NCBI RefSeq assembly: GCF_014280195.1
Contig: NZ_CP047960.1
Span: 2,100,001-2,132,000, forward strand
Reading direction: 5' to 3'
From: Synechococcus sp. A15-24
GTDB taxonomy: Bacteria > Cyanobacteriota > Cyanobacteriia > PCC-6307 > Cyanobiaceae
Length of the DNA: 32,000 bases
The position numbers and the translations under genes are program-made. How positions within the stretch are numbered: position 1 is the first letter of the stretch; every line of letters begins with the position of its first letter. Below, in pieces: positions 12,547 through 28,779 of the stretch. The notes below the pieces were generated by a model, which was given only the letters and a program-made list of their open reading frames with translations, ran no database searches and had not been told where the DNA came from.

Positions 12547-13668
12547 GTGAATGCCGTGAGTCAGACCGACCAGAAGCCAACTCTCATCATTGGTGGCGGC
12601 CTGATGGGATTGGCAGTAGCCCACCAGCTGGCCAGGCGCGGAACATCTGTTCGAGTGATCAGCCGCAAGCGCAGTGAGGCGGCCGGTTTTGTAGCGGCTG
12701 GGATGCTCGCTCCCCATGCGGAAGGGCTATCTGGAGCACTGCTGCAACTTGGCCAGGCCAGTCTGGAGCTGATCCCACGTTGGGTGGCCCAGATCGAAGT
12801 GGACAGCGGCCTGAGCTGTGGTCTCAGGGCCTGCGGCATCGTGGTCCCGTTCCGAAGCGTTGATCAACGGGACCAATACCCCACGTCCGGTTATGGAGTG
12901 GCCCTTGACCGCGACGAGCTGGAGCACGAACTACCCGGCATCGGCTCTAGCTGGACCTGCGGTCTGTTGTTCGAGCAAGACGGACAGATCGACAACCGCC
13001 GTCAGCTCATGCGCGCCCTTGAACGTGCCTGCGTCTCTCTAGATGTTCAATTTCTGGAGGGAAGCGATGTCAAAGAGATCCAAAGGGATACGTCTGGATT
13101 TCTGAAGGGCGTCGTGATGGAAAGCGCCGAAGGTGAGAGATGCCAGCTCTCTTGCCATCAAGCAGTGCTGGCCTGCGGCGCCTGGAGTCAGAAGTTGATG
13201 CCTGAATTACCCGTGTTCCCGATCAAAGGGCAGATGCTGTCGCTTCAAGGTCCACGGGAAGCGCTCAAGCGGGTGATCTTTGGCCCAGGCACCTATTTGG
13301 TACCGAGGGAGGATGGACTAGTGGTTGTTGGAGCCACGAGCGAACGAGATGCAGGTTTTCAAGAGGGGCTGACCCCCAATGGCCAGAAGCAGTTACAAGC
13401 TGGCCTTGAGTCGCTGTTGCCAGCAGCAGCCAGCTGGCCGCCAATGGAACGGTGGTGGGGATTCCGGCCCTGCACGCCTGATGAAGCCCCCCTGCTGGGC
13501 GAAAGCTCCATTCCAGGACTTTGGTTGACCTGCGGCCATCACCGCAATGGAGTGTTGCTTGCCGCAATCACAGCCCAGAAAATTGCCGAAGTCCTTTTTA
13601 GTGGCCAGAAAAGCTCAAAACTTCTGCACGATTTCCACTGGGATCGCTTTACCAAGGGGCGCCCATGA
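12547..13668 (+). CDS. thiO: FAD-dependent glycine oxidase (ThiO/DadA-type oxidoreductase)
   Basis: 373 aa with the N-terminal dinucleotide-binding fold LIIGGGLMGLAVAHQLARRG and a late GHHRNGVLLA motif typical of DAO-family/ThiO enzymes. GTG start at 12547 (alternative GTG at 12556). Confidence 0.8.
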   Translation: MNAVSQTDQKPTLIIGGGLMGLAVAHQLARRGTSVRVISRKRSEAAGFVAAGMLAPHAEGLSGALLQLGQASLELIPRWVAQIEVDSGLSCGLRACGIVVPFRSVDQRDQYPTSGYGVALDRDELEHELPGIGSSWTCGLLFEQDGQIDNRRQLMRALERACVSLDVQFLEGSDVKEIQRDTSGFLKGVVMESAEGERCQLSCHQAVLACGAWSQKLMPELPVFPIKGQMLSLQGPREALKRVIFGPGTYLVPREDGLVVVGATSERDAGFQEGLTPNGQKQLQAGLESLLPAAASWPPMERWWGFRPCTPDEAPLLGESSIPGLWLTCGHHRNGVLLAAITAQKIAEVLFSGQKSSKLLHDFHWDRFTKGRP

Positions 13669-14986
13669 GCTCAATGCCGGCCCAGAAGAAAGGGTTGGAC
13701 ACCCCATTACTGACGCGTCTTTGTTGAGACGACGTGAGTTGCGTCAACAGAGGCAGGCCTCCAACATCGAGGAGCTCATCACCGGAAAGCTTGATCAAAT
13801 TTCGTATAAACGCTTGGCGGGTCATCTGCATTGCCTCCGCCTTAGGAACTCCTTGTTCCAGAAACCGATACATTTGCACAAAATAAGCTGATGTCACCAC
13901 ATCATCGACATACCAGAGCGTGCCAATGGCGCTGCGCGCTCCAGCCTGAAGGGCCAAGCCGCTAAAACCCAATTCAGCGTCTGCGTCACCCAAGGCGGTT
14001 CGGCAAGCAGAGAACACAACCAGATCGAATGGAGCTCCCTTCCTCGTCTTTCTCAATGTTGAAAGCTGCTTCATTGACAGAGGCCCTGAGCCTGAATGCA
14101 ACTGGGATGCTTCGGGCCCACCCGGCTTGAATTCAGCATGGGTCGCAATATGCAACAGCCCATATTGAGATTCAGACGCCTTGGTCAGAAGAGTGTCTGG
14201 AGTAAAATCCTTGTTTAGAAACTGATCTTTTTTGTCGTCAACGGCAATACGACTGATCTCCTGCGGAACCAGCGGGAGTGATGCAAGACCTTCGAACTGA
14301 GAGGCACCCAAGGCCAAAATCTTACCCTGGGATTGAGACTTAGCCTCAAAATCAGTCAACGCTAGCGATGGAGTAATCGCAAATGCATAACGATCTCCGA
14401 GGAATTGCTCCCCGTCATGGAGCGCCGCGAATGGTACTGCCTGAAGTCCACGATCAGCAGCAATGAGCAATGTCGTGACCTTCTTGGCTTCAAGGACTGG
14501 CTTCAATTCACCAAAAATGAGGGAGTGAATCTGTCGAGAGGGCGACTCGGGTTTGTCCTCATTCAAAGACTCAAGCCTCGAAAGCTGCATGTACAACTGA
14601 CGCAACTGATCTCGAAAAACACTGGATGAAAGCTCGACGCGAAATCCCTCAACATCCCCACTAGAAGGAATCAATGTTATGTCGAGAAATGCATCAGAAT
14701 TAGCAGAAGACGTCCTGCCTTCCGCCTGAGTGAAACGCAAGTGGATCACCGCAGGATTGTATTTTTGAGGATCAAACCCAGGCAGCACTGACACTGACTG
14801 CGTCGACTCTGGATCAGGATTTGGATTAGCAAGGCCGTAAACAGATGTGAACAGCTCTGCTCCGAGAGCGCAGCATGCAAAGCCAAGGCACCCAATCCGG
14901 ATCAAATCAGATCTCAAAGTCGTGAATCTCCGCGGGTATACCAAACAGCCAGACAACTTTTGCAGGAGTCGGAATTGATCAATCAC
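13649..14986 (-). CDS. CHAT-domain (caspase-fold, clan CD) protease with N-terminal signal/anchor segment
   Basis: 445 aa. CHAT hallmarks are the His in LLHIATHAEF (His283, nt 14140..14138), the Cys in LVVFSACRTA (Cys328, TGC at 14005..14003), and the C-terminal NPFFWAGIELMG. A hydrophobic segment IGCLGFACCALGAELF covers aa 31-46. GTG at 14986..14984 is preceded by a perfect AGGAGG 6 nt upstream and shares 1 nt with the tpsA stop. Confidence 0.85.
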   Translation of the reverse strand: MIDQFRLLQKLSGCLVYPRRFTTLRSDLIRIGCLGFACCALGAELFTSVYGLANPNPDPESTQSVSVLPGFDPQKYNPAVIHLRFTQAEGRTSSANSDAFLDITLIPSSGDVEGFRVELSSSVFRDQLRQLYMQLSRLESLNEDKPESPSRQIHSLIFGELKPVLEAKKVTTLLIAADRGLQAVPFAALHDGEQFLGDRYAFAITPSLALTDFEAKSQSQGKILALGASQFEGLASLPLVPQEISRIAVDDKKDQFLNKDFTPDTLLTKASESQYGLLHIATHAEFKPGGPEASQLHSGSGPLSMKQLSTLRKTRKGAPFDLVVFSACRTALGDADAELGFSGLALQAGARSAIGTLWYVDDVVTSAYFVQMYRFLEQGVPKAEAMQMTRQAFIRNLIKLSGDELLDVGGLPLLTQLTSSQQRRVSNGVSNPFFWAGIELMGAPW

Positions 14987-17900
14987 TATTGACCTCCTGC
15001 GATTTGTTGTTGCAACTGTTGCAGAAAATTACTGATCTGCCCAGCCGATGGCGTACGGCGACCTGAAAGTTCAGGCAAGTTCAACGCACCTACAGCTCGA
15101 TCAGTCGCCGCACTGTCTCCTTCAGAAACGGCTGCCAAAGCCTGTGAGGAATCCACTCGTTTGACGTCTACAGCTGCGGATGGTGCCGATTCCTGGTCTC
15201 CAGATCCTCCCTGGTCACCGTCAGAGGTGCCTTCTCCATCTGCGTCAGATTCTGCCTCTGCTTCTCCTTCTCCTTCTCCTTCTCCTTCTGCTTCTCCTTC
15301 GGCTTCTCCTTCTCCTTCTCCTTCGGCTCCACCCTCTCCCTCCCCTTCAGCATCTGCTTCTGTATCAGCCTCGGCGTCTGCTTCATCGGCGCTGTCGTCG
15401 GTTCCACTTTCCTCAGTTGATGTGTCCTCCGAGGAATCAGTGGCAGCTGAGTCATCCGATGGATCAGCTGAGTCTGTTGTCTCGCCCGAAGCTTCTCCAC
15501 TTTCACCTGCAGCTGAGGTTTCGGATCCGGCTGCTGTATCGGCGCCAGAGGAGGCCTCTGAATTGGAAACATCAGGTGTAGAACTAGCAACTGTTGACTC
15601 TGACGTTGCACTAGCCACACCAACGGCGGAAGTCGCACTCGATGTTGTGCCAGAACCCTCAGAGCTCACTGCAGCGACCTGAAACGAGTCACCCAGAGAA
15701 AGATCCACTGACGTTCCCTCTGCAGAAAGACTGGGCGGAACAAGGGATGCTGCGACTGATTCAACTGTGTCACTCACATTCGACGAATCAGTCGAAGAAC
15801 TTGTTTCGGTCGTTGCGGCCACCACTGAAACCACCTCCGACGTTGCGGCGGTGGAAACAGAAGCATTAGGCGACGGAGTTGCAGCTGACGTTGACGTTTC
15901 AGGAGCTGCAGCAACATCCACGGGGGAAGTGGAAGCCGTGGACACAGTCGCTGCTGTTTCAACCACAGCAATCGCAGCCGTAATGGTTTCGACACTGCTT
16001 TCGGCTACCAAATCAGAAATGACCGCATCAGGCGTTACTTCACGCGGCGGCTCAGGCGTTAGTCCACCCAACAGCTCAGGCGTTAGTTCACGCGGCGGCT
16101 CAGGCGTTAGTTCACCCAACAGCTCAGGCGTTAGTTCACCCAACAGCTCAGGCGTTAGTTCACCCAACAGCTCAGGCGTTAGTTCACCCATCGGCTCAGG
16201 CGTTAGTTCACCCAACAGCTCAGGCGTTAGTTCACCCATCGGCTCAGGCGTTAGTTCACCCAACAGCTCAGGCGTTAGTTCACCCAACGGCTCAGGCGTT
16301 AGTTCACGCGGCGGCTCAGGCGTTAGTTCACGCGGCGGCTCAGGCGTCGGCTCAGGCGTCGGCTCAGGCTCAGGCTCAGGCTCCGGCTCAGGTTCCGGTT
16401 CCGGTTCCGGTTCCGGTTCAGGCTCAGGCTCAGGCTCAGGCTCCGGCTCTGGCTCAGGCTCCGGCTCCGGCTCTGGAGTGACCTCACAAACATTCGACGT
16501 GGCGCCATCAGCACAATTGGCTGACGTCGGTCCGGAGCCCTGGACGGCCAGTTCCCCTTCGTTAACGACGGTTGAACCGGTGTAAGTGTTGTCACCCGTA
16601 AACGTGAGTACACCGGAGCCAACCTTTGTGAAACCACCTTCGCCAGACATCACCCCTGAAAATGTTGTGTCGAGCTCATTGCCAGCGGTTAGCTGAAAAG
16701 TATTTAGAACAATCGATCCACCACCGGCGATGGAACCTACACGATCACTTGATCCCAGCTCATAAACAGAGCCTTCGCCAATCAAAACGTCCGTCTCATC
16801 ACTCAAACTTCCGCTCACAGACAGCAATCCGCCACTCACATTGCTCGCACCCGTGTACGTGTTCGCACCACTAAGCGTCAGCGTCCCGCTGCCGGTCTTC
16901 GTTAATCCACCTGTTCCCGAAATCACACCGCCAAATGTTGTATCCGTTCCCGATCCGCCAGCCGTCAGCTGATTTGCTCCCAAACTGATCGATCCACTCC
17001 CTGTAATCGATCCCACTTCTTCATCAGCACCAACCTCATAAGTTGCACCACTGGCAACAGATATGGCCGTCGCGCTACTTAAGCTACCACTGCTGGTTGT
17101 AGTCAACCTTCCACCGCTAATATTTGTGGCACCTGTGTATATATTTGCACCACTAAGCTTCAGCGTCCCGCTGCCGGTCTTCGTTAATCCACCTGTTCCC
17201 GAAATCACACCGCCAAATGTTGTATCCGTTCCCGATCCGCCAGCCGTCAGCTGATGTGCTCCCAAACTGATCGATCCACTCCCTGCAATCGATCCCACTT
17301 CTTCATCAGCACCAACCTCATAAGTCGCCCCTTCACTCACAGACACCGCGGTTCCATCACTCAAACTTCCGCTCACAGACAGCAATCCGCCACTCACATT
17401 GCTCGCACCCGTGTACGTGTTCGCACCACTAAGCTTCAGCGTCCCGCTGCCGGTCTTCGTTAATCCACCTGTTCCCGAAATCACACCGCCAAATGTTGTA
17501 TCCGTTCCCGATCCGCCAGCCGTCAGCTGATTTGCTCCCAAACTGATCGATCCACTCCCTGCAATCGATCCCACTTCTTCATCAGCACCAACCTCATAAG
17601 TCGCCCCTTCACTCACAGACACCGCGGTTCCATCACTCAAACTTCCGCTCACAGACAGCAATCCGCCACTCACATTGCTCGCACCCGTGTACGTGTTCGC
17701 ACCACTAAGCGTCAGCGTCCCGCTGCCGGTCTTCGTTAATCCACCTGTTCCCGAAATCACACCGCCAAATGTTGTATCCGTTCCCGATCCGCCAGCCGTC
17801 AGCTGATGTGCTCCCAAACTGATCGATCCACTCCCTGCAATCGATCCCACTTCTTCATCAGCACCAACCTCATAAGTCGCACCACTGGCAACAGATAGTG

Positions 17901-20277
17901 CCGTAGAGCTGCCAAGGCTTCCACTGCCACTTGTCTTCAACGTCCCGCCACTGATACTTGTAGATCCGGTGTAGGTGTGCACTTGATCAAAAGTCAGATC
18001 CCCTGCCCCAGACTTCACAAAAGATCCTTCTCCACTGATGATCTTCGAGTAAATGGCAGTGTCAGAGGCAGATACCAAATCAATTTCATAAGTTGCACCA
18101 GCAGCAACAGCTACAGCTGAAGACATGGCTGTGCCTACAGACTCCAACGTGCCTGCATTAACAGTGGTATCGCCTGTAAAACTTTTAACTCCAGTCAGGG
18201 AAAGCTTGCCAGTACCATTCTTCCTGAGTATGCCAGTGCCTGAAATTTGTCCAGAATATGTCGTGTTACTGGCCTGGAGAGCCTCTAGGCTGCTAGTCGT
18301 TGATATATTTCCTGAACCACTTAAGCCTCCACTTGAGTTTGCTCTAATATCAATAGTATTCGCGCTTAATTCTGCGTTGACTGCTACTCCACCATCTGAA
18401 TGAAGATTCAGAGCATTGCCGCCTGTAATTGCTTGGTCGACAACAATCGAATCTCCCGAATTAAGAGTTAAGGTATTAGAGCTTGGACTCAAAGTGATAG
18501 ACTGTTGAACTTTAATATCCCTAGACGCAGTCAACGAGACATTCGCGCTGCTTAAAGCCGATTCAATAGTTGAGGGTGTAATAACTGCATCTGTACTTGA
18601 ACCAGTAGCGTTTACTGTAGATACATCCAATCCGCTGGTGTTTGTTCGAGAGAAATACACTCCGGTCCCATCATCCGTTTCGGTTCCGCCTGGAGGTGTA
18701 TAACTCACTGTGATCTGATCGCGGCCACCGTTTTCCCCGAAATAAACTACTAAAGGGTAATACGAGTCTTGTGAAAGGCTAAATGTTGTCGTCGCCGATC
18801 TGTCTCGCGCACCATGAGTCCCACCATTGCTGACAAGTGCGTTAGATGTTGTGATGGTTGATTCGAATGAATCAACAGATTCTGTACTATCGGATCCTAT
18901 CCAAAGGTATGAAGCGTCATCACTTCTTGTTTTGAACGTGAATTGACCACTGGCTGGAGCCTTAAAGTAACCGACAAACCGAACGCTATAGGTATTATCA
19001 AAGTTGGCCCCAGGCGTAATGGTATTAATACTTGTAAACGGTGAAGCAAATCGTGAATCAGATTCAGTGGCAGCCGTGTCGAAGAATGATAAATCATCGG
19101 CAAAATATCCATCGTATTTTGTTCCAGTAAGGCCCGACGAAAACTCATATATATCAATTATAATATCCCTTGGATCTAAGAGCCACAAACCATTAATCCC
19201 TTTCTCAGCTATAGCGTCAATCTGAATACCATAGACGTCGAGCATAAAGCCCGATGTCTCTATGCGACCGCCATCACCTTGATCCCTTCCGCCTCTTGCC
19301 CTAAGCTCACCTGAGATCAGGGTTTGCGATTCGGAGTCAATGATATTACTCCACACCACAATTTCACCGCCATCGCCAACATCGCCAGCAGATGCATCCA
19401 GCACTGCGCCAGCTTCAATAACAGCGCGTTTGGCCTGCCGCACTGTTTCATCACTGTTCTGCCAACTGCCTCCCACTTCAATCGTTCCACCGCCACTGGC
19501 TTGCTCCGCCTTCAAGTGCGTGCCTTCGCCAACAACAACCTCGTCTCCGGTCAACGTCAGCCGTGATGTACTGGCGTCCCCATCACCAACATGGATCGTG
19601 CTTTCACGAACCTCCACCACACCTCCAGGTGCATCGGCGAACAGTTCACGGTCCATGCGGATGTCAATCCCATCCATCTGAATCACAGGAACCGAGCCAT
19701 CAGCTGCCAGGGCATCCAGTATTTCGATCCCACCGAACCCAAGCGAGCCAGGCAGCGGATCTCCCTTGAGCGCCGTTAGTTCAGAAGCCCGGGTCTTGAA
19801 CACATCAAACGTTCCCTCACCGAAACGCAACGATCGCGAGGTGCTCAGATTCAGCTTGGGAACATTGACGAATCCTGCACCTGCGCCGAGATGAATACCG
19901 CCTGGTGACAGCCAGAACAGATTTGCCTTTGAGGAAAGCTCAATCGATTTGTTGATAAAGGAACCCAGCGGTGAGGTCACACCCACCACCAGATTGCGCT
20001 TGCCACCGGTATCAATCTCAACCCCCTTGATCTTGCCGCGCGTGTCGAAATCCTTGAATCGCAGAAATTTGTTGCGTCCCGCCTTATTGCCACCGCTGAT
20101 TTTGCAGATCCCTTCGCTGCAGCTGCCGCCCTTCTTTCCGTTCACCTTGGTCGACAGACCCTTGCCACGACCAGCGCGAATCTCAGCCAGCGCCGATGTT
20201 TGATGCACGACGCCACTCATCCCCAGCAAGACACCGAGGGTGAAGCGAATCACCTTCTCAGGACCTGTATGTGCCAT
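14986..20277 (-). CDS. Two-partner-secretion (type Vb) exoprotein, TpsA / filamentous-haemagglutinin-like, ~1763 aa
   Basis: The ORF runs 14986..20352 from a TTG. The first ATG (20277) gives a Sec signal peptide, [34 protein letters not shown]-domain motifs are [18 protein letters not shown] (compare GxNLFHSFxxF) and [14 protein letters not shown] (compare NPNGI). These are followed by a PA14-like domain, autotransporter-type beta-strand repeats, (PE)19, 13 octapeptide repeats, and an S/T-rich and acidic tail. Confidence 0.9.
14993..14998 (-). promoter_or_regulatory. Shine-Dalgarno AGGAGG for the CHAT gene, embedded in the last codons of tpsA
   Basis: The minus strand reads ...ATC GCA GGA GGT CAA TAG TG ATT.... 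That is AGGAGG, a 6-nt spacer (TCAATA), then GTG (14986..14984), which shares its G with the tpsA TAG stop. Confidence 0.6.
15187..16026 (-). repeat. Low-complexity Ser/Thr/Ala/Val-rich segment merging into an acidic Asp/Glu/Gly/Ala tract ([13 protein letters not shown]...)
   Basis: This covers aa 1443-1722 of the TpsA ORF. It has no hydrophobic core pattern. The acidic (G/A)E repeats lie at roughly 15229-15390. Confidence 0.85.
16027..16338 (-). repeat. 13 tandem 24-nt repeats encoding the octapeptide [PPR/LLG/PMG/PLG]ELTPE
   Basis: The plus-strand unit is caggcgttagttcac(cc/gc)(aac/atc/ggc)(a/g)gct. The minus-strand protein reads PPRELTPE x2, [48 protein letters not shown] x3, [24 protein letters not shown]. 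Confidence 0.92.
16339..16476 (-). repeat. (Pro-Glu)19 dipeptide microsatellite followed by PTPEPTPE
   Basis: On the plus strand this is ggctc(a/c)gg(c/t)tc(a/c)gg... hexamers. It translates on the minus strand as PEPEPE... (aa 1293-1338). I verified the frame at 16474-16482 (VTP). Confidence 0.92.
16534..18255 (-). repeat. Array of ~7 autotransporter-associated beta-strand repeat (PATR-type) units in TpsA
   Basis: The unit recurs as [32 protein letters not shown] plus a spacer with ATYEVG...[18 protein letters not shown]...TTFGGVISG. It spans aa ~700-1273. The outer copies are degenerate. Confidence 0.8.
16726..17880 (-). repeat. Four near-identical tandem coding repeats, period 276 nt (92 aa), with one 282-nt unit (94 aa)
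   Basis: The marker string ctaagc(g/t)tcagcgtcccgctgccggtcttcgttaatccacc recurs at 16871, 17153, 17429 and 17705. The aligned units differ by only a few bases over most of their length. Confidence 0.9.
18649..19140 (-). other. PA14/GLEYA-like (carbohydrate-binding type) domain inside TpsA
   Basis: This covers aa ~405-568: YDGYFADD...[32 protein letters not shown]...[26 protein letters not shown]. It follows the PA14 pattern (G-Y-F...tG.YtF...sDDg..L.i.g...Yp..v.y.e.gG.a...l.w). Confidence 0.7.
19420..20184 (-). other. TPS (haemagglutination-activity) secretion domain of TpsA
   Basis: This covers aa ~57-310 in ORF numbering. It contains [16 protein letters not shown] and [22 protein letters not shown], followed by beta-helix-like Gly/Asp-rich turns. 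The boundaries are approximate. Confidence 0.75.
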
Positions 20278-20342
20278 AGCTACTGCACTGCAACGGGGGT
20301 GGGCATGAGCAGCCCTATGGGGCGCTGAAAGGAAGGTCACGC

Positions 20343-20370
20343 AAATGCGCAACCCCCCACAGGCGCATTT
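20343..20370. promoter_or_regulatory. Perfect 8-bp inverted repeat AAATGCGC-N12-GCGCATTT in the tpsA/tpsB divergent region
   Basis: The arms are at 20343-20350 and 20363-20370, with the loop aaccccccacag. It lies 66-93 nt upstream of the tpsA ATG. It could be an operator or a 5'-UTR hairpin. Function unknown. Confidence 0.3.
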
Positions 20371-20494
20371 TGGGGCGTCTGTACATTTTTCTCCTTAGAT
20401 AGACTAGAGAGGAGTGTGGTTAACGGTCTGCTGATCAACGCAATGGCCGTCGGGTTTTTCGCGCTGGATCCCTGATGGATTCAGCGCGTTTTAC

Positions 20495-20509
20495 TTTTTT
20501 CGGAAAAAA
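20495..20509. promoter_or_regulatory. AT palindrome TTTTTTC-G-GAAAAAA upstream of tpsB
   Basis: The 7-bp arms surround a single central base, 30-44 nt upstream of GTG 20539. It is the most AT-rich element in the intergenic region. It could be a protein-binding site or a curved-DNA element. Function unknown. Confidence 0.25.
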
Positions 20510-20538
20510 TAGTCGATTGACTTATCGCCTTCATCGCC

Positions 20539-22215
20539 GTGTTGCTACTGGCCCAGCTGGTCGCCCCGCCCATCCAGCCGGGTCCCGTGCGCCTGCCCAA
20601 TACCGCACCACAACAGCGGCCCGAAGATGATGGATCCCTTTTTGATGAGCCCGCTGAAGCCGCGCCGCAGCCGTCAACCGCTCCCGCAACATCGGATCGA
20701 GAGCAGTCCGGTGAGCAGGCGCTCGACTGGCGTCCCACCATCATTGGCAAGACACCCTATGACGACGCTCAACTCCAGGCGATCCTCAAGGACTGTGGCA
20801 AAGCCAGCACTAACGCCACACTCAACGCCTGTGCTGCAGCACTCACGGCTCAGTTGATCAAGGACGGTTACGTCAACAGTCGTGTCTACAGCCTGAAGAC
20901 CCCAGAACCCGGCGCCCTGGAAGTGGTGCTCGGGACCATTGCGGAATTGCGCATCACCAGCGAGGACGAAGCCCTGCAGAAACAGGTGCAGCAACAGCTC
21001 ACCCCCCTGATCGGCAGCGTGCTCCATATCCCCACACTGGAAGAGGAGCTGGTTCAGGTGCGGCGGCGCGGCGTCGGAGACATCAAGGGTGGGATGGGCC
21101 GCCTGGGAAGCGACCCCACCAAGGCCGTGGTGAACCTGGCTGTTTCACCTGCCGAACCAGAACCGTTGCGAGGTGACTTCTCACTCGGCAACAATGGAAA
21201 TGTTGGAAGTGGTGAATGGCGTGGTGTTGCCACGCTTCTTCAGAAAGGTCTGATTGAACGAGGGGACACAGCTCTGCTGTTTCTGGAGTTGAACAGCGAT
21301 GGTGATCTGGAGTTGGGCAGCAAGGTGGCCTCTCTTACCTACACCTACCCCCTCCGGGACAATTGGTCGATCACAGGGTCGTTTGGCGTCAGCTACAGCC
21401 GCTTTGTGGAATTCCAAAAGCCGGCTTACAACTTCAGTTTCCGTACCCTGCAAGGGCTGCTGCAATTGGAAACAACTCTGCAGGAGTCCGAAAACCTCAC
21501 ATGGACCGCTGCGACAGCATTCAGCACCAATCGCAGTGACAGCTTCAAATCAGGACGCAGTTTTCCCCTCGTCAGCGGCGGTGGGAACGATGGCTGGTCT
21601 CACAGTGGTTTTCTGAAACTCAGCACCAACGTTGGTGGATTTACCGGACCCCTGTTCTGGAATACCAATGCTTATTTCAGCCAGGGTATTGCCGGAGTGA
21701 CCCTCGATGAACACCTGCACAACTTGGATGTTGCAGGAATAGAACCAGGCGAGGCCCGTGCTGTCGGAGCGCTGACTGACATCGGTTTGAGCCTGTCTCC
21801 ATCGACCACCATGAATCTCAGATTCGCTGGTCAGCTTGCCTTCAATCGCCTTCCAGGAAGCATGAGTTTCGGCCTCGGTAGTGGTATTGGCCTGCGGGGA
21901 CTTCCAGGAAGTCTGATCGCTGGGGATAGTGGTTATCTGGCCACAGGGGAAGTTGTTTGGACTCCGTGGCAGAAGGATCAACAACGGATTTCACTGATTC
22001 CCTACCTGGGTATCGGTGGTGTTCACACCAAATTTCCAGACAGGACCTTGGAAGACAGCATCGGTGTGGGTGGGCTGGTCGGCCGCTATCAAAACGGCCG
22101 ATGGGAAGCGGAACTCGGCTGGGTCGACACGTTCAACTCAAACGACAATCCCGGGCTCTGGAACGACTGGATCCTGGGCCACGGGATGTACACCAAGGTC
22201 CGCTACAGCTTCTGA
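20539..22215 (+). CDS. ShlB/FhaC/HecB-family TpsB outer-membrane transporter (POTRA plus 16-strand barrel type)
   Basis: 558 aa. It has a POTRA-like region (YDDAQLQAILKD...GYVNSRVY...LEVVLGTIAELRI), the family motifs SLGNNGNVGSGEWRG (DNxGxxxTGxxR-like) and GIGLRGLPGSLIAGDSGY (L6 VRGY-like), and a terminal aromatic residue (...KVRYSF). The start is problematic: GTG 20539 leaves only MLLLAQLVAPP as a signal peptide (see findings). Confidence 0.85.
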   Translation: MLLLAQLVAPPIQPGPVRLPNTAPQQRPEDDGSLFDEPAEAAPQPSTAPATSDREQSGEQALDWRPTIIGKTPYDDAQLQAILKDCGKASTNATLNACAAALTAQLIKDGYVNSRVYSLKTPEPGALEVVLGTIAELRITSEDEALQKQVQQQLTPLIGSVLHIPTLEEELVQVRRRGVGDIKGGMGRLGSDPTKAVVNLAVSPAEPEPLRGDFSLGNNGNVGSGEWRGVATLLQKGLIERGDTALLFLELNSDGDLELGSKVASLTYTYPLRDNWSITGSFGVSYSRFVEFQKPAYNFSFRTLQGLLQLETTLQESENLTWTAATAFSTNRSDSFKSGRSFPLVSGGGNDGWSHSGFLKLSTNVGGFTGPLFWNTNAYFSQGIAGVTLDEHLHNLDVAGIEPGEARAVGALTDIGLSLSPSTTMNLRFAGQLAFNRLPGSMSFGLGSGIGLRGLPGSLIAGDSGYLATGEVVWTPWQKDQQRISLIPYLGIGGVHTKFPDRTLEDSIGVGGLVGRYQNGRWEAELGWVDTFNSNDNPGLWNDWILGHGMYTKVRYSF

Positions 22216-22782: not shown

Positions 22783-24720
22783 GTGCTGAGCGGAACCGAG
22801 CAGGCCTGGTCCGTTGCGCAAAGCGCTGACCTTTACGGGCTCGAACGCTGGGGAGATCCCTATTTTTCCATCAACGCCAAAGGCCATGTGGTGGTGCAGC
22901 CCCGCGGCGATCGGGGTGGATCGCTTGATCTGGTGGAGTTGCTCCAAGGACTGAAGGCGCGCGACCTCAGCACCCCAATCCTGATCCGTTTCGACGACAT
23001 CCTCGAAGACCGGCTGGAACGGTTGCATGCGGCCTTCGACCGTGCCATCGCCCACTACGCCTACGACGCCAGCTACCAGGGAGTGTTTCCGATCAAATGC
23101 AACCAACAGCGGCATGTGGTGGAACATTTGGTGGACCGTGGCAACCGCTGGAATTTCGGGCTGGAGGCGGGGAGCAAGGCGGAGCTGTTGATCGCGCTTT
23201 CCCTCACCAAGAATCCTGATGCCCTGCTGATCTGCAACGGTTACAAGGACCGCCGCTACATCGAAACGGCGATCCTGGCCAGGCGGCTTGGACACCAACC
23301 CATGGTGGTGATCGAACAGGCCGATGAAGTGGAGCGCATCATCCAGGCCAGCGACGCCCTGGGTGCATCCCCATTCCTCGGAATCCGCGCCAAGTTATCC
23401 AGCCGCAGCACAGGGCGCTGGGGTAGCTCCGTCGGCGAGCGGGCCAAATTCGGCCTGGATCTCACCGAAATGCTGCAGACCGTGCACGCCCTGGAACGCG
23501 CCGGATTGCTCAAGGATCTGCGGCTGCTCCACTTCCACATCGGCAGCCAAATCAACGACATTGCCGTGCTCAAAGACGCTCTCCAGGAAGCCGGCCAGAT
23601 CTATGTGGAGCTAACCCGGCTGGGGGCACCGATGGGACATCTCGACGTGGGCGGCGGGCTTGGCATTGATTACGACGGCAGCCACACGGCAACGGCAGCC
23701 TCGACCAACTACACGCTGCAGAACTACGCCAATGACGTGGTGGCCACAGTTCGGGAATGCTGTGAACCCCACAACGTTCCTGTTCCTGTCCTAGTGAGCG
23801 AAAGCGGTCGGGCCATCGCCAGCCACTTCTCCGTTCTCGTGTTCGACGTGATGGGTTGTGGTCGAACCCCCGACGACGAACCGCCCAGCCAAGACAACGA
23901 ACCCTTGCCCGTGCGCAATCTGCGCGTCACGCTGACCCACATCCGCAGCGTGGAGAAGGAAACAGACCCCGAGTTGCGGCTGCTCCAGGAAGCGTGGAAC
24001 GATGCGATCAAATTCAGGGATGACGCGCTGGCTGCCTTCCGGCTCGGGTACATCCGCCTGGAGGAACGGGCCATGGCTGAGCAGCTCACCTGGAGCTGCG
24101 CCCGCGCCATCAACGAACGTTTGCCAACCAACACCCCCATCCATGACGACCTGAAGGGACTACGGCGTGCCCTGGCCTGCACGTATTACGTGAACCTCTC
24201 CGTGTTCCGCTCAGCGCCTGACACATGGGCCATCGACCAGCTGTTCCCACTGATGCCGATTCATCGCCTGGATCAACAACCAACCGAACTGGGCGACTTT
24301 GCAGATCTCACCTGTGACTCCGATGGAAAGCTTGCGCGATTCATCCACTCAGGACAAAGCAAATCCCTGCTGGAACTCCACCCGCTTGTAGATGGTGAGC
24401 CCTATTGGATCGGCATGTTCCTCGGCGGTGCCTATCAGGAAGTGATGGGCAACCTGCACAACCTGTTCGGCAGCACCAGCGCCGTGCATGTGAGGCTCAA
24501 CCCCAAAGGCAGTGGCTACCTGCTGGATCATGTGGTGAAGGGAGACACCAACGCTGACGTTCTCGAGGAAATGCAACACAACCCAGACCTGATGCTGGAG
24601 CGGCTGCGCCAGGCTTCAGAGGCTGCCATTCAACGGGGAACGTTGAAGATTGAGGACGCCAGGCTGTTAATGAGTCATCTTAAAGCCAGCCTGGATCAGA
24701 CCACCTACCTGCAGGGATGA
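22783..24720 (+). CDS. speA: Biosynthetic arginine decarboxylase
   Basis: 645 aa. It has [23 protein letters not shown], the PLP-lysine context [10 protein letters not shown], and [11 protein letters not shown] start at 22783. Confidence 0.95.
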
Positions 24721-26609
24721 AACGCTTCCGGGAGTTGCTGCAACGCATCGGGCCATACACCGCAGCTGTGTTGGTGCTTGTACTGCTGCGCAGCACAGGA
24801 CTATCCCAAACCATCGATCTGCTGGTCTATGACCTGATCACGACGCAGCGACCTGCACCCTCGGGCAGCGACACACCCATCACACTGATCGGTATTGAAG
24901 AAAGTGACATCCAGCGCTTTGGCTGGCCGATTGACGACGGACTGTTCTGCGAAGCCTTTGACAGGCTTAATGCAAGCGGTGTCGACGTCATCGGTTTTGA
25001 CATCTACCGGGACAAAGGCGTCGGACCAGATCAACAGTGCCTGCGCGATCGCTTTCAAAACGAACCAACGCTGGTGTCGATCTTCAACGTTGCTTCTGGC
25101 ATTGGACCAGTCCCTGGGACGCCGGCGGAACGGCAGTCGTACAACGATCTAAGCCTGGATGCCGACGGAATTCTTCGGCGTGATCTCGTCCATGTCACTG
25201 GACAAGATGAAGCCACGGTGTCCTTCGCTCTACGGGTGATGGAGATCGCGACCACTGACCGCAGTCTGCGACAGGCAATGGACGATGGCACTCACAAGGA
25301 TGCATGGCTGAGCGCCAATGGAGGGGGGTATTACAACGAAGTGGATGCAGGCCTGGGGCTGCAACGGCTGCTTCGCTTTCGGGATCCCTGGAGCTATCCG
25401 CTTTATTCCCTTGCTCAGGTTCTGGACGGCGAGATACCAGAGGAGGCGATTCGCGACAAGATCGTTTTAATCGGCAGTACTGCTCCCTCTCTGAGAGACC
25501 TTTTCAACGTGCCTCACACCCGCTTCCGCAGAAGCGATGAGGTGTTTCAAGTGTCAGGTGTCGAGATCCATGCCAACCGTGTTGCAACACTGCTCGAACA
25601 CCACGTCGGGAGCATCCAGATCGGCTGGATCATGCCTGGCTGGGGCAACCAGATGCTGCTGGTCCTTTGCATCGGCCTGGGCGTACTCCTCGGGGAAGCG
25701 GTGCCCAAACTTCGTCGCAGCGTCCTCCTGGTGCTGACACTTGGGGTCGGTCTCACCGGCGGTCTTGGCTGGCTTCTCTTGCAACAGCATGTCTGGGTGG
25801 GAATGGCGATGCCACTCACGGGCCTACTCAGCATGGGCGGGGCCGGCTGGCTGCGTCGAGGGGCCATGAGCCAGCAACATTCACAACAAATCAAGCAACT
25901 GCTTGGACAAACAACGTCCCCTGCCGTGGCGGAGCAGCTGTGGGATCAGCGTGATGAATTGCTCAGCAACGGACGCTTTGATGGGCGGCAGCTTCCAATC
26001 ACCGTGCTGTTCACAGATACGGCCAACTTCACCAGCGTCTCTGAGGGGCTCAGTCCCCGCGAACTGATGGACTGGCTTAATCGAGGCATGGAAGTATGCG
26101 TTCCCGCCGTAACCCGACGCGGGGGCATGGTGAATAAGTTCACCGGTGACGGAATGCTTGCCGTGTTTGGTGTTCCAATCGAACAGGACGTCAGGGCTGA
26201 AGCCAAGGCCGCTATCGAGGCAGCGCAAGAAATCAAGGTCGGACTAGAGCAGTTGAATCAACAACTTCAAATCGATGGCGAGCCAGCCATGCGGATCAGA
26301 ATGGGCATTCACTCCGGTGATGCGCTCGTGGGCTCAATGGGGAGCGCCGAACGCATTGAATATGCTGTCATCGGCGACACCGTGAATTGCGCCTCACGGT
26401 TGGAAAGTCTGGAAAAGACGCGCCACACAGGAGTTCTGCGGGTGTTGATGTCCAACAACACCCTAGAACTCCTAGATCCGGACTTTCGCAAGCAATTAGA
26501 CCTGCATGGCTGGGGGCCGATGCACGTCAAGGGTCGAGACGAACCGCTTGATGTTTATGAACTCAAGATGGACAACGCACTGGAAGATTCTGAGGCCACT
26601 CAGCAGTGA
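24717..26609 (+). CDS. CHASE2 extracytoplasmic sensor fused to a class III adenylate/guanylate cyclase
   Basis: 630 aa. It has an N-terminal TM (YTAAVLVLVLL), a ~280-aa periplasmic CHASE2-like region (ITLIGIEESDIQRFGWP...VIGFDIYRD...IVLIGSTAPSLRD...GVEIHAN), three TM segments (aa ~305-380), and then a cyclase domain. The cyclase has metal Asp residues in VLFTDTANFT and FTGDGMLAVFG, and Asn/Arg in GDTVNCASRLES. The ATG at 24717 overlaps the speA TGA (ATGA). Confidence 0.88.
   Translation: MKRFRELLQRIGPYTAAVLVLVLLRSTGLSQTIDLLVYDLITTQRPAPSGSDTPITLIGIEESDIQRFGWPIDDGLFCEAFDRLNASGVDVIGFDIYRDKGVGPDQQCLRDRFQNEPTLVSIFNVASGIGPVPGTPAERQSYNDLSLDADGILRRDLVHVTGQDEATVSFALRVMEIATTDRSLRQAMDDGTHKDAWLSANGGGYYNEVDAGLGLQRLLRFRDPWSYPLYSLAQVLDGEIPEEAIRDKIVLIGSTAPSLRDLFNVPHTRFRRSDEVFQVSGVEIHANRVATLLEHHVGSIQIGWIMPGWGNQMLLVLCIGLGVLLGEAVPKLRRSVLLVLTLGVGLTGGLGWLLLQQHVWVGMAMPLTGLLSMGGAGWLRRGAMSQQHSQQIKQLLGQTTSPAVAEQLWDQRDELLSNGRFDGRQLPITVLFTDTANFTSVSEGLSPRELMDWLNRGMEVCVPAVTRRGGMVNKFTGDGMLAVFGVPIEQDVRAEAKAAIEAAQEIKVGLEQLNQQLQIDGEPAMRIRMGIHSGDALVGSMGSAERIEYAVIGDTVNCASRLESLEKTRHTGVLRVLMSNNTLELLDPDFRKQLDLHGWGPMHVKGRDEPLDVYELKMDNALEDSEATQQ
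24789..25616 (+). other. CHASE2 periplasmic sensor domain
   Basis: This covers aa ~25-300, between the N-terminal TM and the triple-TM block. The boundaries are approximate. Confidence 0.7.
25989..26561 (+). other. Class III nucleotide cyclase catalytic domain
   Basis: This covers aa ~425-615. It contains Asp434 and Asp478 (metal), Lys474 (purine-specifying position), and Asn557 and Arg561 (transition state). The second specificity position appears to be Ala550 (EYAVIGD) by pattern alignment. Confidence 0.8.
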
Positions 26610-27183
26610 CGATATCTGCGAGTCCGAACTGACCCAGGGTTGCCTTTGCCGGGACGGTGGCACCACAGCTGTTTCTGAGCTTCGTCAGAGCGGCCTGAAC
26701 AGGAGCATCACTGGCATCTGGCTCTGGAACCAGGAGGCTGACGGCAGGGGGTGATGCTGTTTCAACAAAAGCCAGAGGGTCATCACTCGCCGAACCGTCC
26801 GCCGAGGCGCAATCAAACTCTGATTCCCAAACGGTGGGGGCGCTGATGCTGGAACCACTGATCAAAATCAGTGCAGCTGGCGCGGCCGGGAGTGTCTGGG
26901 TGATCGACGCTCCACCAGATTCTGGTTTAAAGCTGATGTTGAGACTCACAGGGTTGGCGGTAGGCCCCTGAACCAACCCCAGCCCCGATGTCGCTCCAGG
27001 AGCAAACACACTGCTGTCGGGAACCAAATGAGCCAGGATCCGGGCACTGCATTCCCCTCTGGTACCACCACCGACCCTCCGGCCAGGGAAACTACTCCGC
27101 AGATTGGCCTGAGCCAGCGCTGTCATCGGCATGAAGCCATGCAAGGCGCTTAAACCTGCGCCCATTAGGAGGAAAGCCTTCAT
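26563..27183 (-). CDS. Secreted DUF928-like protein
   Basis: The ORF track runs 26563..27285. ATG 27183 gives a signal peptide, MKAFLLMGAGLSALHGFMPMTALA/QA. Just after it comes PGRRVGGGTRGEC, which I recall as the hallmark motif of the cyanobacterial DUF928 family (from memory, not searched). Four Cys are present. The alternative ATG at 27285 directly abuts the stop of the upstream channel gene (TGAATG). Confidence 0.65.
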   Translation of the reverse strand: MKAFLLMGAGLSALHGFMPMTALAQANLRSSFPGRRVGGGTRGECSARILAHLVPDSSVFAPGATSGLGLVQGPTANPVSLNISFKPESGGASITQTLPAAPAALILISGSSISAPTVWESEFDCASADGSASDDPLAFVETASPPAVSLLVPEPDASDAPVQAALTKLRNSCGATVPAKATLGQFGLADIVTAEWPQNLPVRCPS

Positions 27184-27285
27184 GGCGGTGGAATGCATGT
27201 CCATCAAGGGAACTCCAACCCAGCCTGACAACGAATAAGACTCCTGTCCAAACAAACCAGGTATGGGGAGGCCTTGAGAGGCCAT

Positions 27286-28779
27286 TCAGGAGTTCATCAA
27301 CCTGCTGAACGTCTGAGTCATGCGTTCGACCAGACCCAGCTCGAAGGTTTTCTTCTCCTCGAGCGTAAAAGTCTTCAAACCAGCTTCCCGTGTTGCCATG
27401 ACCTTGGCAAATTCTGCCATCGCAGTCTGATTGTTGAGAAAGACGGCTTCAATCTGACTCTGACTGATTTCCTGGAGCAGCACATGACCAGTCGCTTGGA
27501 TCCAAGCCGTACGAGGAGCATCAGTGAGCGCAGAGATTTCTCCAAAAATGGATCCAGACTTAAGCTGTGCAACTTCCATCATTGAAGTCTCATCAGACGG
27601 ATCCGGGATGAGTACAGAGCAGATCCCTTCCATGATCACAAACATCGAGCCACCAATCTCTCCCTTGTTCACCACCATCTCACCAGGGCCAAAAGCCAAT
27701 ATGTTGTCATTACAGACAATGCCTTGAATCTCATCATCCGTTAAGGACGAAAAGAGCTCGATCTTTCTTAGTAAATTAAAACATTTTTCCTGCGCTTCGC
27801 TACTCCGCCGCTCACGCAATTGACGACGAGTTTGCTCGGTACGTAGATCGACAATCGAATGGGGCAGCGAATATCCATGACGCTCAATAGCATACCAAAC
27901 ACTTGAAAAAACCTGGGTTCGGATCCTATTACGAACAGCAAAGTCTGGCACAAAAAATTTCAGCGCATAATTAATTGAGTCGTTACCAATTGATCTGATC
28001 ACAACTGAGCTTCGATCCTTGTTAACGATTTCAACATTCGAGTCCAACACACTCTTCAAAACTCGCATCGCCTGACCAGGTGGCATATTCAGAGGAACGC
28101 CCACTTCGACCTCCAACCGATACTCGGCACGCGAGGGGCGTGAATAATTAATCGTTTTACTATGATCAATGAGCGAGTTAGGAACAACAATATAGCGATC
28201 ATCAGTGTCGTCATAAAGGTAAGTGCTATTCCAAGAAATATTATCGACACGGCCCATCTGGCCAGCAATTTCAACCCAATCACCAACCACATATTGACGC
28301 TCTACCTGAACAGCGAGAGCTGCTGAAATGTTGCTGATCTGCGTGGCAGAGCCTGGACCGACAATGAAGGCAAGACCACCCAGAACAGCCGCAGAACCCA
28401 CCGTTGTCAGCAGACCCTGGCTGTTAAGCTCAGCCGCCACAACAACGAAAGCTGCTGCCACAAGTGCCAAATCCTTGAGGATCCGCGGCGGGGCCACCCC
28501 TCGAGAACTCAAACGGATGACCAAAGCCCAAATCACATCGAGGGCCAGCTCCACGAAGGCGACATAGAGGCCGGTTTTGGCAACGACAGCGATCCAGTCG
28601 ACAATGTCTCCCTCGAGCCCAGCACCCTGCAGCCCATTACTCAGAAGAGCCGCCGCGAGTGATACGCGGAAAAACACCATGCTTGGGATGAGGCGACTCA
28701 ATCGACTTGACCCCAACTGACGAATTCTCCCAAGCAGGAATGTCAGCAGAAAAGGGATAATTAGCAGCAAACTTCCCAT
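27286..28779 (-). CDS. MscS-family mechanosensitive channel with C-terminal cyclic-nucleotide-binding domain (bCNG-type)
   Basis: 497 aa. It has N-terminal TM helices, an MscS pore/beta domain (GGLAFIVGPGSATQISNISAALAVQVERQYVVGDWVEIAGQMGRVDNISWNSTYL) and a cNMP-binding domain with the phosphate-binding cassette FGEISALTDAPRTAWIQA (Glu414, Arg423). Confidence 0.88.
   Translation of the reverse strand: MGSLLLIIPFLLTFLLGRIRQLGSSRLSRLIPSMVFFRVSLAAALLSNGLQGAGLEGDIVDWIAVVAKTGLYVAFVELALDVIWALVIRLSSRGVAPPRILKDLALVAAAFVVVAAELNSQGLLTTVGSAAVLGGLAFIVGPGSATQISNISAALAVQVERQYVVGDWVEIAGQMGRVDNISWNSTYLYDDTDDRYIVVPNSLIDHSKTINYSRPSRAEYRLEVEVGVPLNMPPGQAMRVLKSVLDSNVEIVNKDRSSVVIRSIGNDSINYALKFFVPDFAVRNRIRTQVFSSVWYAIERHGYSLPHSIVDLRTEQTRRQLRERRSSEAQEKCFNLLRKIELFSSLTDDEIQGIVCNDNILAFGPGEMVVNKGEIGGSMFVIMEGICSVLIPDPSDETSMMEVAQLKSGSIFGEISALTDAPRTAWIQATGHVLLQEISQSQIEAVFLNNQTAMAEFAKVMATREAGLKTFTLEEKKTFELGLVERMTQTFSRLMNS
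27415..27777 (-). other. Cyclic-nucleotide-binding domain of the MscS-type channel
   Basis: This covers aa ~335-455: LLRKIELFSSLTDDEIQGIV...GEMVVNKGEIGGSMFVIMEG...GSIFGEISALTDAPRTAWIQATGHVLLQEI. Confidence 0.85.

Follow-up and report, generated by a model that had tools for sequence, protein, structure and literature searches.

A two-partner secretion locus of marine Synechococcus with a caspase-fold CHAT module apparently split from the C-terminus of its exoprotein

The 32,000-nucleotide stretch of the Synechococcus sp. A15-24 genome studied here (contig NZ_CP047960.1, positions 2,100,001 to 2,132,000; hereafter the window) carries a locus of three open reading frames (ORFs): tpsB, for an Omp85-family transporter; the divergent tpsA, for a large exoprotein; and, next to tpsA, a gene for a CHAT protein. 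The three ORFs of this marine Synechococcus-type genome lie where the initial annotation had placed them, with tpsB on the forward strand and the other two on the reverse strand (Table 1). That annotation regarded CHAT as a third gene added to a two-partner secretion (TPS) pair in place of a toxin and its immunity gene. The comparison of related loci leads us to another picture: judged by alignment and distribution, CHAT is the ancestral C-terminal domain of TpsA, not a recruited accessory gene, and the window is a fission variant in which the break fell in the linker before CHAT and the detached CHAT gained a Sec-type leader. As for function, we put at slightly better than even the chance that CHAT, with the TpsA C-terminus, would serve the maturation or release of TpsA with a possible signalling output, this statement being taken as a whole.

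The usual arrangement is a divergent tpsB beside a single tpsA-CHAT ORF, with the TPS domain N-terminal and CHAT C-terminal. Compared with representatives clustered at 50% identity, the CHAT protein matched mostly long proteins (600-3200 aa), residues ~63-445 of the query lying at their extreme C-terminus; 56 of 126 long representatives had a homologue of the TpsA N-terminus at their own N-terminus, and a Pfam scan of fused representatives found CHAT in 35/35 and the TPS domain in 18/35. The genome sample consisted of 80 loci from species-representative genomes, nearly all of Prochlorococcus, Synechococcus or Cyanobium; 34 were fused and 14 split like the window, the others being truncated or ambiguous. 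In 34 of the 48 classifiable loci, then, CHAT is the C-terminal domain of TpsA, and the notion of an added gene that replaces a toxin/immunity pair had to be given up. Of the association initially expected between CHAT and TPS genes, fusions included, the linkage itself held, with tpsB adjoining tpsA in about 50 related loci, but the separate-gene state did not hold as the rule (fused 34, split 14).

The place of the break can be read from the alignment of split and fused forms. In fused proteins, the conserved motif ..ALNL/LGL..(T/S)P.(Q/E)(L/I)Q..L.. precedes a variable linker, after which the CHAT N-lobe begins with its first strand, YNPAVLHLRFT. TpsA of the window, like that of its relative CC9616, ends ~10 residues past the motif, and the CHAT ORF has a basic-then-hydrophobic N-terminus in the place of the linker. 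All split TpsA proteins examined have the motif at their C-terminus, and between the window and CC9616 it is 39% identical amid an otherwise unalignable tail. The tpsA/CHAT junction reads ...GGT CAA TAG TGA, where the G of TAG is shared with the GTG start of CHAT; the overlap of 1 nt, in different frames, is as first described, and AGGAGG is found 6 nt upstream of the GTG. At the other end, the last 20 nt of the CHAT gene (13649-13668) are also the last 20 nt of the convergent DAO-type oxidase gene (12547-13668), an overlap that CC9616 has as well.

A rough neighbour-joining tree of the CHAT domains placed the split forms, with leaders unrelated to one another, at three or more positions: in the marine subcluster 5.1 clade to which the window belongs, in a clade of freshwater forms, and at one locus alone (L052). 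Relatives from outside the picocyanobacteria are fused, as are the deep branches. The tree is crude; it suggests, as the simpler reading, repeated fission (at least three times) at the same boundary. These data bear on the proposal that CHAT, acquired as a third gene, is a counterpart of SphB1: an accessory protease dedicated to the maturation of TpsA through trimming of its low-complexity tail. In its favour are the export-type N-terminus, the intact dyad and the translational coupling to tpsA, and the processing of FhaB by periplasmic and surface proteases is established in Bordetella. The apparent origin of CHAT as a domain of TpsA argues against separate recruitment, and the proposal, which differs from the reading that we favour mainly in the origin of CHAT, ignores the rest of the conserved module described below. 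Pfam and NCBIfam scans of the protein found CHAT alone, with no subtilase and no autotransporter beta-domain; it is, in fact, no subtilisin-like autotransporter of the SphB1 type. We regard the proposal as improbable.

The assignment of the protein to the CHAT family is based on profile, dyad conservation and fold. The Pfam model PF12770 matched with E = 4e-49 and 168 bits (cut-off 24), from position 3 to 288 of 289. The motifs HIATHAEF and FSACRTA occupy residues 279-286 and 325-331, and neither a 31-sequence alignment (A2) nor 35 fused relatives (A1) show any variation at H279, H283 or C328, which bears out the dyad His283/Cys328 originally named; the dyad motifs were found in 80/81 CHAT domains of related loci. 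A single-sequence AlphaFold2 (AF2) model (pLDDT 32) was discarded in favour of one built from the 31-sequence alignment, which reached pLDDT 83 and pTM 0.81, leaving only aa 1-65 unstructured. Foldseek matched this model to the TPR-CHAT protein Csx29 (1e-15), the transmembrane anti-sigma factor DdvA (1e-9), separase and SAVED-CHAT, each with probability 1.00, and more weakly to caspases 1, 4 and 11, in keeping with the fold expected from the start. Sequence and profile searches against the PDB sequences gave no matches, such that the solved CHAT proteins are linked to ours by fold comparison only. By all three measures, the protein is a member of the CHAT family, and its peptidase activity is predicted.

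One could also propose that CHAT is a non-catalytic plug or anchor on the periplasmic side, holding TpsA in TpsB, or else that the split form is an artefact of assembly or a pseudogene. Translocation could conceivably be stalled by a folded domain at the C-terminus, but the dyad and its surrounding motifs are invariant; and split genes of this kind, which have conserved leaders, a double stop and a Shine-Dalgarno-like site, turn up in numerous independent assemblies and metagenomes, hardly the mark of an artefact. We consider this explanation very improbable in either form.

Across the clade, CHAT is 60-94% identical. Between the window and CC9616, identity is 67% for CHAT, 58% for TpsB (the syntenic gene) and 55% for the TpsA N-terminus, and the TpsA passenger can be aligned only repeat by repeat; on this comparison, CHAT is the most conserved part of the system. 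That finding goes against taking CHAT for an effector or toxin delivered by TpsA, like the CdiA C-terminal or polymorphic toxins, although its location at the C-terminus of a large TpsA is that of the toxins of contact-dependent inhibition (CDI). A polymorphic tip would be expected there, and the variable C-terminal toxin with its immunity gene that defines CDI was not found: the locus has no immunity-like ORF, nor any ORF between CHAT and the convergent DAO gene, inside which the CHAT gene ends. Moreover, a split CHAT has no TPS domain and hence cannot use TpsB, and o240, a product of the module described below, is conserved and secreted, unlike a typical immunity protein. We give the toxin explanation scarcely any credence.

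The N-terminus of the detached CHAT has the character of an export signal. Its hydrophobic stretch, at about aa 28-52, is preceded by R19, R20, R25 and R30, and the whole may represent either a Sec leader that is cleaved off or a signal anchor. The basic-then-hydrophobic pattern seen at first is present, and it is kept in kind in 96 of 102 standalone CHAT homologues by a heuristic test of hydrophobicity and K/R content; every detached CHAT, in all split lineages, has a leader-type N-terminus, the sequences being unrelated between lineages. In addition, Cys328 is the sole cysteine of the mature domain, and a single (catalytic) cysteine is likewise found in 47/48 relatives, fused or split; for comparison, the cytoplasmic proteins encoded nearby in the window contain 1.2 Cys per 100 aa. 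This depletion suits a thiol enzyme working in the oxidising envelope. TpsB is not available to a detached, folded CHAT that has no TPS domain; from this, the leaders and the single cysteine, we infer a periplasmic site of action for CHAT, in concert with the TpsA C-terminus. By analogy with the C-terminal parts of FhaB and CdiA, the fused CHAT domain would be periplasmic too.

The exoprotein itself has the domains of a TpsA protein in a divergent form. Its TPS domain has NKFLRF for the N.F..F motif, LSPGGI for NPNGI, and a conserved Cys53/Cys58 pair; the TIGR01901 model scored 19.1 bits, below its cut-off of 29.1. The profile of the TpsA family matched the secretion domain of HMW1 (2ODL) with E = 2e-4, and TpsA homologues of 54-74% identity carry PF05860, some of them being named 'filamentous hemagglutinin' by NCBI. 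Residues 224-399 of the ORF (199-374 of a 375-aa query) matched the region that follows the TPS domain of EtpA (E = 5e-19). By these comparisons, the TPS domain is divergent but homologous, with a sub-threshold profile score. TpsB, for its part, scored above the Pfam cut-offs, with 32.3 bits for ShlB (cut-off 22.7) and 24.1 bits for POTRA_2 (cut-off 24). The homologues with PF05860, the HMW1 profile match, the homology to EtpA and the presence of TpsB together led us to accept the locus as a two-partner secretion system, as initially proposed, in which export is predicted.

Beyond the lectin-like insert, tpsA contains tandem repeats. The longest, at 16797-17880, has a 276-nt unit present in 3.9 copies that match at 90% (Tandem Repeats Finder score 1811) and corresponds to the PATR units, and 6-, 12- and 24-nt tandem repeats at 15231-16473 (including 15231-15362 and 16028-16473) encode the repeats and acidic stretches of the spacer, in agreement with the low-complexity tail of ~500 aa first reported. 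The repeats suggest a recent expansion, and the length of this part probably varies. The GC skew falls to -0.36 at 17-18 kb, within tpsA. Cysteine occurs only four times in TpsA, as the closely spaced pairs 53/58 and 1255/1264 (counting from the ATG at 20277). The first pair is in the TPS domain (GSCSEGIC) and the second, also present in CC9616, marks the exact end of the beta-helix, ahead of the PE spacer; both probably form disulfide loops.

As for TpsB, a short N-terminus, M(L)LLLAQLVAPPLQxGPVRLP, with no basic n-region, is kept across Prochlorococcus, Synechococcus and Cyanobium (~45 TpsB genes, loci L001-L078). A longer TpsB with a hidden signal peptide was considered and ruled out, given an in-frame stop 21 nt upstream (20518-20520) and the conservation of the short N-terminus in the whole clade.

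We propose the following mechanism. The neighbouring TpsB would thread TpsA across the outer membrane. From its N-terminus, TpsA would consist of a Sec leader, the divergent TPS domain, the beta-helical passenger with the PA14/GLEYA insert and PATR repeats, a long Pro/Glu/Ser-rich spacer and a ~50-aa C-terminal motif, of which the spacer and the motif would remain periplasmic. The split CHAT would get to the periplasmic side independently by its own Sec-type leader, and the fused CHAT domain would likewise stay there; tethered to the conserved C-terminal motif of TpsA, or docked on it, CHAT would act as a specific cysteine protease. Its likeliest action would be to cut the periplasmically held TpsA spacer, such that the surface protein is matured or released; o240 or the CHASE2 cyclase described below may be further substrates. 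That an intact CHAT is kept after fission argues against pure self-excision and is compatible with cleavage in trans. Its role would therefore go beyond self-excision, to the cleavage of TpsA in trans upstream of the motif or to a substrate encoded by a linked gene.

Several points weigh against this reading. The whole-protein Pfam scan of TpsA gives no TPS match, and the N-terminal 152 aa alone match PF05860 (E = 1e-6) at 29.3 bits, below the gathering score of 33.5. TpsB is without a classical signal peptide (its ORF starts MLLLAQLVAPPIQPGPVRLP, 20518-20600), and export in this system may accordingly have unusual features. The call of the CHAT leader comes from a heuristic and from conservation, and the direction of change, fission and not fusion, from outgroups and the rough tree. 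No Arg or Asp that would point to cleavage by a clan-CD protease is obviously conserved in the TpsA motif in the split/fused alignment. Finally, the fused CHAT domain could instead reach the cell surface.

The TPS genes do not stand by themselves: by the recurrence of their neighbours, they belong to a larger conserved module with a CHASE2-domain cyclase, the small secreted protein o240 and an MscS-type channel with a cyclic-nucleotide-binding domain, all three encoded outside the part of the window on which the initial annotation dwelt. When related loci were searched with every gene of the window (82 loci), homologues were found in 48 for the cyclase, 49 for o240 and 33 for the channel, and in fewer for the other genes: 27 for SpeA, 20 for AlaRS, 11 for NDK, 10 for DAO and 8 for GatB. 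Of 37 loci flanked by 5 kb or more on each side, 29 had a CHASE2 homologue. The arrangement seen most often is tpsB (divergent), tpsA-CHAT, o240, and then the CHASE2 cyclase and MscS; in 39/73 loci, the o240 homologue is directly downstream of CHAT on the same strand, but in the window it follows the MscS gene instead. The window protein and five homologues of o240 gave no Pfam match (E up to 1), and no NCBIfam match was found; o240 thus falls in no described family. The idea that o240 is a DUF928 protein, suggested by a GGGTRG-type motif, was dropped, as neither database supports it.

This linkage, kept through at least four gene orders or orientations, is the basis of a different explanation, in which the locus is first of all a signalling device: TpsA would span the outer membrane and sense at the surface, the periplasmic CHAT, as its output, would cut o240 or CHASE2 and thus switch the cyclase, and the cyclic nucleotide would gate the MscS-type channel, the maturation of TpsA being secondary. 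It finds support in the frequency of the module genes, the housekeeping flanks being rarer; in the solved relatives of the CHAT fold (Csx29, SAVED-CHAT, separase, DdvA), which are regulated, specific switches; and in the active-looking CHAT kept after fission, which argues for a substrate besides its own linker. All of the support that is particular to it comes from gene neighbourhood, and the linkage may in part be inherited synteny because the sampled loci all belong to one lineage. The module was not seen beside the more distant cyanobacterial CHAT proteins examined: no CHASE2, o240 or TpsB genes were found in the flanks of five such loci of filamentous cyanobacteria (L074, L075, L079, L081, L082). 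In the window, moreover, NDK and SpeA intervene between tpsB and the cyclase gene. We find it doubtful that signalling is the primary role.

A bolder combination of the same elements would make the locus an envelope-spanning sensor, with a lectin-bearing surface filament passing through TpsB and coupled, covalently or by the C-terminal motif, to a periplasmic caspase-like protease that acts on o240 or CHASE2 and so controls the cyclase, whose cyclic nucleotide gates the channel. We think this rather unlikely. If true, it would mean a response of Prochlorococcus and Synechococcus triggered by contact, grazers or phages, and a first candidate input for the CHASE2 sensor domain, for which we know of no ligand. 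The maturation or release of TpsA by CHAT remains the reading that we prefer, and the coordinates of the features concerned are collected in Table 1.

Table 1. Features of the TPS-CHAT locus and of the linked module, in positions of the window (position 1 is its first nucleotide).
Feature	Position	Strand	Basis and remarks
tpsB, Omp85-family transporter	20539-22215	+	POTRA_2 aa 70-118, ShlB barrel aa 201-496 (Pfam)
tpsA, exoprotein	14986-20352	-	1788-aa ORF; probable ATG at 20277, giving 1763 aa
TpsA putative Sec signal peptide	20185-20277	-	By inspection of the sequence from the ATG at 20277; the CC9616 homologue starts at the equivalent position
Divergent TPS secretion domain	19807-20115	-	PF05860 (E = 1e-6); TIGR01901 (19 bits); HMW1 2ODL profile match
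EtpA/HMW1-type beta-helix segment after the TPS domain	19156-19683	-	phmmer against EtpA (8vba), E = 5e-19
PA14/GLEYA lectin-like insert	18670-19137	-	Pfam GLEYA (6.9e-13), PA14 (1e-10)
PATR (autotransporter-type beta-strand) repeats, 7 matches	16543-18531	-	Pfam PATR (3e-56), TIGR02601 (7e-63)
Low-complexity spacer	15208-16485	-	(PE)n and TPELLGEL repeats, rich in Ser/Thr/Ala and acidic residues; translation and tandem repeats
Conserved C-terminal motif of TpsA	14989-15213	-	Same motif directly upstream of CHAT in fused proteins; split/fused alignment
CHAT protein, detached C-terminal module of TpsA	13649-14986	-	445 aa; mature domain ~aa 66-445
CHAT N-terminal export signal, aa 1-52 (predicted)	14831-14986	-	Basic stretch, hydrophobic core IGCLGFACCALGA, then ..YGLA|NP; read from the sequence
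Predicted catalytic dyad, His283 codon (14138-14140) to Cys328 codon (14003-14005)	14003-14140	-	Invariance in alignments A2 and A1
CHASE2-domain class III nucleotidyl (adenylate) cyclase	24717-26609	+	Pfam CHASE2 (4e-49), Guanylate_cyc (9e-21)
o240, small secreted protein	26563-27285	-	Probable start ~27183-27207; leader, conserved FPGRRVGGGTRGEC motif right after it, four conserved cysteines
MscS-type channel with C-terminal cyclic-nucleotide-binding domain	27286-28779	-	Pfam MS_channel and cNMP_binding

The flanks of the window are housekeeping genes (ClpB, ABC1 kinase, ArgJ, GatB, DAO-type oxidase, NDK, arginine decarboxylase and AlaRS). Their G+C content is ~0.62, that of the TPS/CHAT region is 0.45-0.58, and a similar drop is found at 27-29 kb. 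The nearest protein matches to the locus are from marine Synechococcus, and CC9616 has the synteny of the window: CHASE2 cyclase, SpeA, NDK, TpsB, large protein, CHAT, DAO and GatB. Between tpsA and tpsB, a hairpin at 20460-20498 (+) has a 12-bp stem with eight G-C pairs, followed by TTTTACTTTT, and lies ~40 nt before the start of tpsB; it has no obvious counterpart in CC9616. Rfam gave no match in the window or for this hairpin, and a scan of the window for promoters and terminators returned counts not above those of shuffles.

Among the related loci, some genomes have extra copies (L007, 2135-3601; L014; L025; L056/L064), with two CHAT-bearing genes each in L014 and L025. Synechococcus MIT S1220 has a second CHAT ORF adjoining tpsB, and in Synechococcus CS-1328 a CHAT protein of >3700 aa is found beside a TpsA of >3100 aa. 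A picocyanobacterial locus with the same neighbours and 50-66% protein identity was also found on eight contigs (L004, L011, L020, L030, L045, L048, L058, L069) from metagenome-assembled genomes labelled Pseudomonadales, Klebsiella, Salipiger, Tabrizicola, Bordetella parapertussis, Acidovorax, Rhizobium and Sulfopaludibacter; mis-binning or mislabelling is the likely cause.

The same gene set appears, in one sentence, as genomic island module Syn_GI122 of marine Synechococcus in Doré et al. (2020; PMC7522525), whose text on this module identifies neither its TPS nature, nor the fusion or fission of TpsA and CHAT, nor a mechanism. In the searchable literature, we found no paper linking CHAT with two-partner secretion, hemagglutinin-type proteins or CHASE2, and no functional study of the locus. 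The fused architecture is already abundant in sequence databases and the island is listed in print; what appears uncharacterised is the union of a caspase-fold module with TPS, the repeated fission of this union, and the linkage to CHASE2 and to a channel gated by cyclic nucleotides.

Marine picocyanobacteria are the most abundant phototrophs, and their variable cell-surface islands are believed to influence how they interact with phages and grazers. One such surface island can now be described as a TPS system whose exoprotein carries, or is partnered with, a predicted caspase-fold protease. The fission variants amount to an evolutionary experiment in which the protease would have been placed on the periplasmic side, and they offer matched strains for comparison, split as in CC9616 and MIT S1220 or fused as in MIT S9503 and Prochlorococcus SB; the linkage to the CHASE2 cyclase and the cyclic-nucleotide-gated channel, in turn, provides a testable hypothesis on the function of CHAT and CHASE2 in the envelope.

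The system shares features with several known ones and coincides with none of them. As in FhaB/FhaC of Bordetella, the exoprotein is beta-helical, includes a Pro-rich region and is conserved at its extreme C-terminus, and its export here would likewise depend on TpsB. The extreme C-terminus of FhaB stays periplasmic and is removed by proteases (SphB1, CtpA, DegP); here, the candidate for such processing is neither a subtilisin autotransporter nor a serine protease of the Ctp or Deg type but a clan-CD CHAT domain, ordinarily carried by TpsA. With CdiA/CdiB, it has in common a large TpsA with a functional module at its C-terminus, and in CdiA the C-terminal half is held in the periplasm until triggered; in contrast, the module of our system is conserved instead of polymorphic, has no immunity gene, and can be a separately exported protein. 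The likeness to EtpBAC and HMW1ABC lies in the segment of TpsA after the TPS domain, homologous to EtpA, in the profile match to the HMW1 secretion domain, and in the presence of a third gene, which in those systems encodes a cytoplasmic glycosyltransferase (HMW1C/EtpC) and here a CHAT module with a predicted export signal.

A caspase-fold protease of clan CD, family C80 (the autoprocessing cysteine protease domain), is found inside the very large secreted proteins of the MARTX and large clostridial toxin groups, where it is used for processing. It is of another family, it differs in secretion route (type I or holin-like) and in activator (host InsP6), and it gave no sequence match here. The association of a cyclase with a neighbouring membrane protein that binds cyclic nucleotides recalls Pycsar; in fact, the cyclase domain matched the PADLOC model of PycC with E = 1e-28, better than the general Pfam cyclase model, and CHAT matched BovA at the domain level (E = 1e-8). 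PADLOC recognised no complete known defence system containing CHAT or of the Pycsar type, and our cyclase differs in its extracytoplasmic CHASE2 sensor and in its Sec and TPS context. We gave a defence-system reading less weight on these grounds. Finally, separase, Csx29 (Craspase), SAVED-CHAT, HetF of Anabaena and DdvA of Myxococcus share with the protein of the window the Pfam CHAT domain, the two-lobed caspase-like fold and the His/Cys dyad. Those proteases are cytoplasmic or nuclear, except for the envelope-associated DdvA, and none is part of a secretion substrate, whereas the CHAT described here is set apart by its single cysteine and by its putative Sec leader or TpsA context.

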